Assembly (NCBI GenBank): GCA_965226795.1
Contig: CBDDDZ010000005.1
Span: 1,120,001 to 1,184,000, forward strand
Origin: Candidatus Latescibacterota bacterium
GTDB lineage: Bacteria; Latescibacterota; UBA2968; GCA-2709665
DNA length: 64,000 bases
Reading direction: 5' to 3'
The translations under genes were made by a program, and so were the position numbers. The notes beneath the pieces were generated by a model. It saw only the letters and a program-made list of their open reading frames with translations. It made no database searches and was not told where the DNA came from. Positions 48,903-50,470 of this stretch are shown piece after piece. Numbering within the stretch: position 1 is the first letter of the stretch; each line of letters starts with the position of its first letter.

Positions 48903-49801
48903 GACAATCATACCATCCACATCCGGGATCATCCTTGGAAACCGAAGCTTCCCCGGGCCTGAAAGCCGGTGGTTGGGGCGGGCTGTTCTGGAAACGACTC
49001 CTGAAGAACCGACTGGCAGCCGCCGGGGGTATCCTCCTGTTGGGATTCCTTTTGCTGGCCATTGCCGCGCCCCTGGCGGCGCCGCACGATCCCTTTGCTC
49101 AGAACTTGTACGAACGCCTTCAACCCCCGTCGCTGACGTATCTGTTCGGCACGGATGATTTCGGGAGGGATGTTCTGAGCCGCGTCATCCACGGCGCACG
49201 GATTTCGCTACGGGTGGGCGTTTCAGCTGTACTGATCGCGCTGATTGTGGGCGTTCCCATCGGGCTCGTGTCGGGGTATTGGGGCGGCGCGCTGGATCAG
49301 GCGTTGATGCGGGCGATGGATCTGATGCTCGCATTCCCCAGTATCCTTCTGGCCATCGCCATTGTGGCGGTCCTGGGGCCGGGGTTGGAAAATGCGATGC
49401 TGGCGGTCGGAATCGTGGCGGTGCCCCAGTACGCCCGTCTGGTGCGGGCTTCGGCGCTGGCTGTACGGGGACAGGATTACGTACAGGCCGTGCGAGCGCT
49501 CGGCGCGGGGGATTTTCAGATCCTGTTTTTTTCGGTTCTCCCGAACTGCCTGACGCCTCTGATCGTACAGTCCACGTTGGGGCTGGCTACCGCCATACTC
49601 GATGCGGCGGGCCTGAGCTTTTTGGGATTGGGCGCGCAGCCGCCGACGCCGGAGTGGGGCGCGATGCTGACTGGTGGACGGGAACTGGTACTCCGAGCGC
49701 CGTGGGTATTGGCCCTTCCGGGCCTGGCGATTTTTTTTACCGTATTGGCATTTAACCTGCTCGGAGATGGACTACGGGATGCGCTGGATCCGCGGACCTG
49801 A
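48899..49801 (+). CDS. dppC: Peptide ABC transporter permease
   Basis: GTG overlapping the dppB stop; FGTDDFGRDVLSR, LSFLGLGAQPPTPEWG, NLLGDGLRDALDP. Confidence 0.93.
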   Translation: MRQSYHPHPGSSLETEASPGLKAGGWGGLFWKRLLKNRLAAAGGILLLGFLLLAIAAPLAAPHDPFAQNLYERLQPPSLTYLFGTDDFGRDVLSRVIHGARISLRVGVSAVLIALIVGVPIGLVSGYWGGALDQALMRAMDLMLAFPSILLAIAIVAVLGPGLENAMLAVGIVAVPQYARLVRASALAVRGQDYVQAVRALGAGDFQILFFSVLPNCLTPLIVQSTLGLATAILDAAGLSFLGLGAQPPTPEWGAMLTGGRELVLRAPWVLALPGLAIFFTVLAFNLLGDGLRDALDPRT

Positions 49802-50047
49802 CCCGGCTGTTTGAAGCATGAAATGCCCGTTTCGATATGGAATAAGCGACTCCCGCCGTGCCGTGTATATCGACCTGCAGGCGACGAATGGCGAATCCGC
49901 GCGGACGGCTCCGGTCAGCCAGTTACGTGCCAGCACGAAGCCAGGATGTAATGAGCGTCACAAATTAATGTTAATTAAGGTAATAAAGATATCTGAAACG
50001 AAGCACGCGTACGCCATGTTTCTGAAGGCTTCGGCTGGAAAAAGCGT

Positions 50048-50075
50048 TTGACTTCCTCGTTCGGTGGCGTATATT
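50048..50075 (+). promoter_or_regulatory. Sigma70-like promoter for a small transcript
   Basis: TTGACT-16-TATATT. Confidence 0.6.
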
Positions 50076-50081
50076 TTCGTT

Positions 50082-50338
50082 TACACGGAAAGGAGGTGGT
50101 CAAATGAGCGAAATGACCAGTGGAGGTGGCTGTAGTTAGGTGCGCTGCCGGGTGCGGGAGAACATCTCGTCTGGAAACGCGCCTGGCGAATCTAAACAGC
50201 CATCGAAAGACAGGCGATCCGTCATACCGATGGGCCCCGGCCATGTGTGTGGGGCGCCGTGAGATGGAGGCCGTCTCGAGAATTGCGCCGTGGTGAGATG
50301 TGGCCGAAAAACGGCTCCCGAATCGCGGCGCATTTTTT
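50082..50338 (+). ncRNA. Candidate structured small RNA / micro-ORF transcript of unknown family
   Basis: Bounded by a promoter and a stem plus T6; contains AAAGGAGGTGGTC, ORF 50104-50139 (MSEMTSGGGCS*) and a long imperfect stem at 50125-50204. Confidence 0.55.
50284..50338 (+). terminator. Terminator-like stem with U-tract
   Basis: TGCGCCGTGG(50284-50293) pairs with TCGCGGCGCA(50323-50332), followed by TTTTTT. Confidence 0.55.
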
Positions 50339-50357: not shown

Positions 50358-50386
50358 TTGACAAAGTCACGCTCACTCATTACTTT
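50358..50386 (+). promoter_or_regulatory. Sigma70-like promoter of the rplM operon
   Basis: TTGACA-17-TACTTT. Confidence 0.65.
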
Positions 50387-50470
50387 CAAAGGTTTGACAT
50401 TGCGTGGAACTGTCGTTGAGAGGAGGTGAGTTCGAATTCGGCGTTTTTGTGGACGCCATTCGGATTTATT

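Follow-up and report, generated by a model that had tools for sequence, protein, structure and literature searches.

A conserved, folded micro-mRNA gene of Latescibacterota with distant kinship to Ms_IGR-5 and a product that may act as a ribosome-engaging switch

Leader-peptide attenuators and regulatory upstream open reading frames (uORFs) are represented by systems such as trpL, ermCL and toiL. A site resembling a Shine-Dalgarno (SD) sequence near the stop codon has been reported for leader peptides and, in vitro, an SD lying 9-14 nt before the stop slows mRNA release 50-fold; ribosome splitting, according to Chen et al., is not slowed by the SD (accessible portion of PMC5737721). Two small mRNAs described in Alphaproteobacteria are rreB and rreR. 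The former is weakly translated, binds 30S subunits and co-sediments with them (Hahn et al., PMC5711450). The sections available of the same paper report that removal of the start codon extends the lifetime of rreB from 10 to 37 min, that a 20-fold overexpression has no effect on growth, that the RNA is far scarcer than ribosomes and that it gives rise to a soluble fragment of 60 nt. The synthetic RreB and RreR peptides are described there as unstructured, and conservation of the peptides is reported at the level of clades (PMC5711450).

Ms_IGR-5 (Rfam RF02471) is the IGR-5 transcript of M. smegmatis, located between MSMEG_5794 and MSMEG_5795. In the accessible text of the respective reports it is called validated but uncharacterised, with a NAD cap and an A at +1 (bioRxiv 10.1101/2021.12.14.472595), and it is expressed in M. 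smegmatis (PMC10454040) as well as in S. lividans and S. avermitilis (PMC8079986, PMC8780764). In M. abscessus, the portion seen of PMC4974804 gives Ms_IGR-5 3737 ribosome-profiling RPKM vs 70 RNA RPKM, the top profiling value and the top ratio among 36 rows of ncRNAs, and an increase with erythromycin (logFC 2.67) and kanamycin (1.14). In the same source many tRNAs have equal or higher profiling/RNA ratios, the authors caution that ribonucleoproteins co-sediment, and IGR-5 is placed among the non-coding RNAs. The name scr4389, considered for the Streptomyces members of the family, was a guess and has been dropped.

The gene described here was found in a 64,000-nt stretch of a Candidatus Latescibacterota genome (the window, by which the whole stretch analysed is meant), upstream of the ribosomal protein gene rplM. 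All the elements that the original prediction had placed at this site, i.e., promoter, SD, ATG, ORF, hairpin, internal SD, stems, T6 run and rplM promoter, were found in position. The features are the following, all on the forward strand and in window coordinates:

50048-50075, + strand: predicted sigma-70-type promoter, TTGACT-16-TATATT, with 10/12 matches; both hexamers are seen in relatives.
50083-50338, + strand: predicted RNA of about 256 nt, single copy in the genome; the 5' end is placed from the promoter and the ACAC start of the family.
50084-50122, + strand: helix P0, CAC 50084-86 with GTG 50120-22, closing the SD1/start domain and predicted to leave the SD core unpaired.
50087-50101, + strand: SD1, the extended complement of the 16S rRNA 3' tail, 15 bp with two G-U, -26.2 kcal/mol.
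50097-50119, + strand: helix P1, TGGTCA/TGACCA, whose loop holds the start codon; it shows little covariation.
50104-50139, + strand: 11-codon ORF, MSEMTSGGGCS and a stop; start, length and stop are kept in 30/30 loci.
50122-50129, + strand: SD2, the internal GGAGGTGG, with GAGG 7 nt before the last sense codon; it doubles as the 5' strand of P2.
50125-50204, + strand: helix P2, 50125-33 with 50196-204, around P3 and the conserved loop GAAUC (50188-92).
50135-50187, + strand: helix P3, in two predicted, mutually exclusive registers, 50178-87 with 50135-44 or with 50147-56.
50163-50168, + strand: CATCTC, complementary to GAGATG 50295-50300 and also to the GAGGTG of either SD.
50208-50276, + strand: order-specific 3' structured domain, in which 9/16 and 6/9 pairs change on both sides.
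50284-50338, + strand: terminal stem, with a hairpin inside it, and a T6 run, a predicted intrinsic terminator; double-sided changes in 6/14 pairs.
50358-50386, + strand: predicted rplM promoter, TTGACA-17-TACTTT, given as context outside the RNA; TTGACA-17-TATCTT-like sites occur in relatives.

The RNA gene probably stands free as its own small transcript. A scan for promoters returned 2 vs 1.7 expected, which puts a lone promoter match at the level of chance, and a simple scanner run over the window listed neither the rplM promoter nor the terminator of the RNA. Both promoters and the T-run (T6 at 50333-50338) are nevertheless recognisable in relatives, and the two hexamers of the RNA promoter are visible in the 30 upstream stretches printed, with a different spacer. 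BLAST of the genome against the gene found no paralogue. Eleven RNA runs contain the stretch or part of it; the four examined consist of contigs, which are uninformative on ends, strand and level, and the metatranscriptome contigs span the site but continue into rplM. Two contigs of run X2 start at 50095, with no cover of 49418-50094; as a 5' end of the RNA this position was rejected, since the cover is complete in runs X1 and X3 and starts at 50151 in X9. Between the upstream ABC permease gene and the promoter lie about 240 nt, partly AT-rich (49802-50040); in several relatives the promoter is found about 20 nt past the permease stop.

On sequence grounds, the element is homologous, distantly, to Ms_IGR-5, though it falls below the formal cut-off of that family. 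Rfam gave 0 matches over the whole window at the gathering cut-off; below it, RF02471, annotated as an "Actinobacteria sRNA", matches the element with 23 bits (E 0.004; cut-off 45), the best of three matches to this family in the genome. The two weaker ones were not recovered by model R1 and were rejected, and the 21-bit match of the terminator to int-alpA (E 0.077) was attributed to chance. When 20 loci were scanned with Ms_IGR-5, seven scored above the cut-off, two of them non-actinobacterial (L160, 55.9 bits; L071, 49.6 bits). Circularity was avoided by a 3'-core profile of the element's own order, a region never included in any search pattern: 54/67 actinobacterial and 6/12 other loci scored above the 95th percentile of 311 control windows. 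The statement that the RNA belongs to no named family thus stands as far as the Rfam cut-off goes, and is to be amended in that the RNA is a distant relative of Ms_IGR-5 and resembles rreB/rreR.

Within the class, the element is found once per genome in most members. A search with rplM recovered the locus from 30 of 31 related genomes, and in all 30 of these rplM-chosen loci the promoter, the SD, the ATG and an 11-codon frame ending in TAG are present; the sole member of the genus that lacks the element (G003) also lacks rplM. When 121 genomes of the phylum were searched by pattern, it was recovered in 16/17, 28/28, 44/49 and 2/2 genomes of the four families that make up the class (in these counts, as in all the others, related genomes are not independent of each other), while one match in family f3 and five genomes matched outside the class were taken as chance. 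A divergent copy was found by the model in two genomes of family f8, and a model match in L201 was set aside as chance, the same genome having a proper copy elsewhere.

Two shared motifs retrieved 119 GTDB loci from 2 of the 64 parts of the collection, from which about 4000 stored stretches are estimated overall. By title, these comprise 99 Actinomycetota, 8 Acidobacteriota, 4 Planctomycetota, 2 Zixibacteria, 2 Syntrophobacter/Deltaproteobacteria and one each of Latescibacterota (L097, nearly identical to the order's own members), Eisenbacteria, Sumerlaeota and a Heliobacteriaceae of doubtful label. Exact patterns were matched in 78/201 genomes of Actinomycetota (about 5 by chance; a control pattern hit 14) and in 18/151 of Acidobacteriota, of which about 7 are real by eye and for which the control pattern was at least as frequent, the two tallies taking in 7 and 1 unpublished genomes, respectively, on which nothing else stated here depends. 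In Planctomycetota the pattern was matched in 9/151 genomes, 8 with the ORF, and in Desulfobacterota in 9/101, 3 of them real by eye. The prevalence outside the class is a lower bound, because it is based on exact patterns. Among viral contigs the two-motif pattern gave 0 matches, and two matches of its GATCC version look like chance; BLAST against plasmids returned short chance matches only. The Heliobacteriaceae-labelled record and a Blastocatellia record (L055, L119) share an upstream transglutaminase-TPR gene and a similar RNA, and the label may be wrong. In a Bryobacteraceae locus (L145:540-600), a promoter comes after the RNA, together with a frame that starts MKAGIHP and that we take to resemble ribosomal protein L31. 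The SD and the ORF, whose conservation in relatives was proposed originally as a check, are kept in 30/30 loci, and the geometry and the helices recur in kin from other phyla.

From a structural perspective, the region folds better than 200/200 shuffles (z -3.49). The long stems first proposed (50125-33/50196-204 and AGGTGCG/CGCGCCT) are present, and P2 and P3 are kept in relatives. P0, absent from that first description, pairs the 5' end of the RNA with the bases just before SD2; it is invariant in 26/26 members of the order, and three of its four pairs have double-sided changes in an unfitted, cross-phylum alignment of 52 sequences. For the whole structure, the same alignment has 9/25 double-sided pairs, which is not above shuffles, with three other measures above them; in a structure-fitted alignment 19/25 pairs show double-sided changes. 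Among members of the order, it is mainly the 3' domain and the terminator that covary. The two folds of P3 are predicted about 2 kcal/mol apart (-109.6 vs -107.5 kcal/mol): the register with 50135-44 would hide the stop codon and that with 50147-56 would free it. In 26 relatives, 98% and 90% of the cells of the two registers are paired, with no double-sided changes. A pseudoknot between CATCTC and GAGATG is possible: CATCTC is near-invariant and both are lost together in L189, and the six core pairs are without compensatory change.

The complement of the 16S tail is the most conspicuous feature of the 5' part. AAAGGAGGTGGTC sits at 50089-50101, and the genome's own 16S gene ends in GGATCACCTCCTTTCT, so that SD1 would pair with the tail over 15 bases, two of them G-U, provided that the mature 16S rRNA retains UUUCU. 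Among 15,091 genomic GGAGG sites, this is the strongest 16S-tail duplex, with the exception of the antisense strand of the 16S gene; the unusually long SD pairing first proposed is thereby borne out. One match of the SD1 pattern (L336:301-375) appears by eye to be the antisense of a 16S 3' end, with GGACCACCTCC and not GGATCACCTCC.

The ATG at 50104 begins 2 nt after the SD1 site, a spacing kept in 30/30 loci, and the frame closes with the TAG at 50139; the short ORF of the original prediction is therefore conserved. Among 19 distinct ORFs of the order, codons 2-4 vary non-synonymously and the silent positions of codons 6-10 are invariant. The distance from SD2 to the last sense codon is 6-9 nt in 199 sequences and 8 nt in 161/199, in a count in which the stop was sought within a 7-nt window. 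An unbiased metagenome scan with SD1 alone gave 120 loci from 1 of 64 parts, i.e., 114 once 2 duplicates and 4 short rows were removed. GAGGT, SD2 not being in the query, occurs 15-58 nt downstream of SD1 in 83/114 of these loci vs 26/661 control windows; it is followed 14-18 nt later by a stop in 80/83, 78 of them at 14 or 15. All 80 have an open in-frame start 2-10 nt after SD1, which in the other frames is found in 27 and 4 of 80. The starts are ATG, GTG or TTG in 67 cases and CTG, ATC or ATA in 13, the stops TAG (57), TGA (15) and TAA (8), and the ORFs have 12-18 codons. Furthermore, stops in the +2 frame are found within the first five codons in 58/80 (L220-L339) vs 19.7 in shuffled sequences. 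Out-of-frame stops after the start often take the form of AGT AGT repeats, and in the ORF of the window TGA occurs twice in the +1 frame (50105 and 50114).

The same geometry is found in the GTDB set, where in 118/119 motif loci a stop 3-6 nt downstream of the second motif shares its frame with an ATG, GTG, TTG or CTG, although the frame in which that motif is read differs: 0 in most, 1 in the order of the window and in Eisenbacteria, 2 in Planctomycetota. In the matches of family f3, differences in length leave start and stop in frame, as judged by eye. An exception is represented by two model-found members of family f8 (L191 and L193), in which CAGGTG replaces SD2 and a 15-codon frame with three cysteines runs to a later stop. 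The loci compared show that the start-SD2-stop geometry, not the peptide, is what selection keeps. Part of the conservation of SD2 is structural, because SD2 is also the 5' strand of P2; its position is one in which it could pair again with the 16S rRNA at termination.

The reading that we favour, at about an even chance, is that of a conserved, folded, single-copy micro-mRNA gene, distant kin of Ms_IGR-5, with a product that is likely a ribosome-engaging switch, the ribosome being probably the ligand and the peptide a by-product. A 30S subunit would dock on the unpaired SD1 and initiation would be slow; reading on to the stop, the ribosome would melt P0, P1 and P2 together with the register of P3 that hides the stop codon. 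SD2 would pair again with the 16S tail at termination, with the consequence that release would be delayed; retention at the stop may be brief, because splitting is not slowed by an SD. The fold and the lifetime of the RNA would thus depend on ribosomes that complete the cycle, and its level, or a released form, would report the status of translation. The structured RNA engaging the 30S subunit that was originally proposed finds support in the near-complete 16S-tail complement, the covarying helices and the conserved geometry, all of them properties of the sequence. The profiling signal of Ms_IGR-5 in M. abscessus and the 30S binding and start-dependent decay of rreB also favour the switch. Against it stand the two f8 members with CAGGTG and a later stop, the fact that rreB has an anti-SD in the position of SD2, the profiling ratios of tRNAs, which match or exceed that of Ms_IGR-5, the P3 registers and the pseudoknot with no compensatory changes, and the normal growth under rreB overexpression. 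The element is estimated to occur in single copy in thousands of genomes (about 4000 stretches) of at least eight named bacterial groups; being kept for its translation and not for its peptide, it points to an unrecognised layer of control of the ribosome. Moreover, it joins two orphan literatures, those of Ms_IGR-5 and of rreB/rreR, and SD1, the start, SD2, the stop and the P3 register offer precise mutational handles in tractable hosts such as M. smegmatis or Streptomyces.

A broader version, tentative and rather improbable, would unite Ms_IGR-5, this RNA and the rre genes in one ancient, cross-phylum class of ribosome-clamp RNAs, in which two anti-SD baits would hold or bridge a pair of ribosomes, one at the stop and one at the start, as a checkpoint of initiation, termination and recycling. 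This role is described for no bacterial RNA in the literature searched. In that search, from which subscription papers were largely missing, none of the matches listed joins these families or describes the geometry of ORF, SD2 and stop, and a search with the peptide motif returned unrelated words only.

Other readings give the ribosome a lesser or a different part. In an unlikely one, the RNA would be a trans-acting sRNA or a protein-binding RNA with its 3' part as the business end, the ribosome merely protecting or positioning it. The strongly structured 3' domains would fit, as would the soluble 60-nt fragment of rreB and the GTCC found within 45 nt after P2 in 102/104 GGAC-type relatives (background 22%; 26/130 were dropped, the end of P2 not being located), whose flanks covary (58 vs 28 and 37 vs 22 shuffled). 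The 3' parts, however, are wholly different between lineages and minimal in Planctomycetota, f3 and f4; the constant is the SD1-ORF-SD2-stop unit, and protection alone needs no fixed position of the stop. It is also quite unlikely that the RNA is a bulk sink in which 30S subunits or ribosomes are parked under stress or when growth is slow. The genome's strongest SD, two anti-SD-binding sites, weak starts and the co-sedimentation of rreB with 30S subunits could be read in this way, but rreB is much rarer than ribosomes and tolerates 20-fold overexpression with no effect on growth, and the RNA level listed for M. abscessus is modest (70 RPKM).

The 16S tail contains a GAUCA stretch that is bound by the assembly factor Era. 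Since the complement spans the entire single-stranded tail, GAUCA included, and the gene precedes rplM-rpsI-rpsB-tsf-frr in the order, the RNA might be imagined as a test substrate for new 30S subunits, pairing with the whole free tail and cycled by mature subunits only; the linkage to translation genes is not general, and we regard this proposal as very doubtful. That this is just a micropeptide gene of the ordinary kind, equipped with a strong ribosome-binding site, is less likely still. The ORF is intact in 30/30 loci, and the clade-level conservation of RreB and RreR in the available part of Hahn et al. speaks for a peptide; against it, one and the same RNA motif is read in three frames, codons 2-4 differ in the residues they encode although silent positions do not vary, lengths range over 12-18 codons, and the synthetic RreB and RreR are unstructured. 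The suggestion that the gene encodes a micropeptide as a useful product found no support, since the frame over the motif, the sequence and the length of the peptide all vary.

Regarding the genomic context, 124 candidate ORFs from 32 loci were put to Pfam, and downstream genes were identified at 26 loci: 12 are convergent and 1 is rplM. In the order itself, rplM is not adjacent in five loci from two genera (L189, L192, L208, L367 and L412), nor is it in the loci tested of families f3, f4 and f8. The linkage to rplM is therefore lineage-specific and may reflect co-expression in this lineage; because of this, and because the neighbours differ, the element is not a ribosomal-protein leader, and the constant same-strand position upstream of a regulated gene that marks leaders and attenuators is not found. 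A cis-acting leader coupling translation to the transcription of rplM-rpsI, as a translation-sensing leader had been suggested, is thus most improbable: its uORF, alternative helices, terminator, RNA contigs that bridge into rplM and position just upstream of rplM in 30/30 loci (chosen by rplM) are outweighed by these neighbours, by the predicted promoter of rplM itself, in line with an RNA that is not simply an rplM 5' UTR, and by a constrained fold in which the terminator is predicted to stay intact when a ribosome occupies the stop. As a separate observation, the SD of rplM, GAGAGGAGGTG, lies about 40 nt before its ATG (window 50418-50470), with a stable hairpin in between in 22/30 loci; another 7 lack the hairpin and have the SD at 9-10 nt from the ATG, and 1 locus is without GAGG. 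The ribosome-binding site of rplM looks like one split by a looped-out hairpin, and this region is possibly a regulatory leader.

To return to the micro-mRNA switch that we prefer and to the described systems, leader-peptide attenuators share with it a short ORF, alternative helices and a terminator, but they differ in that the element lacks a constant downstream gene, a run of sensing codons and an arrest peptide that is conserved. The likeness to Ms_IGR-5 is closer: the blocks ACAC..AAGGAGGUGGUC, GAGGUGGCUG, UAG, GGCGAAU and CAGYCA follow in the same order, and the P0-P3 skeleton and the SD1-ORF-SD2-stop geometry are common to both. The differences are that the ORF here is in another frame over the motif, that the RNA has about 256 nt vs a model of 184 positions and carries an order-specific 3' domain without the GTCC hairpin loop that could pair with the GGAC of P1, and that the host belongs to another phylum, outside Actinobacteria, for which the near identity of L097 likewise suggests Latescibacterota.

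With rreB and rreR, the element shares a small gene with promoter and terminator (both predicted here), an SD over the whole 16S tail and a short ORF, while its peptide has no similarity to theirs. The rre genes are defined by at least 16 nt of perfect complementarity to 16S rRNA and by a GTG start with its first base inside the complement, whereas here 15 bp with two G-U are followed by an ATG 2 nt later in 30/30 loci; rreB itself has a perfect 17-nt complement that overlaps the GTG and is predicted to be mostly paired. In rreB-like loci the ORF contains an anti-SD, SD2 is absent and model R1 gives 11-14 bits, vs 30 bits for L269, an 18-codon GTG locus that fits rreR by description. In three contigs of a viral collection (L362, L365 and L366), further rreB-type GGAGGTGATCCAGTG sites are followed by frames of 21-33 codons beginning VSHCH. 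Two Desulfobacterota loci join an rreB-type GGAGGTGATCCAGTG site to an SD2 and a stop of the IGR-5 type. Common ancestry with rreB is plausible and, by analogy, the element likely works as the small mRNAs rreB and rreR do.
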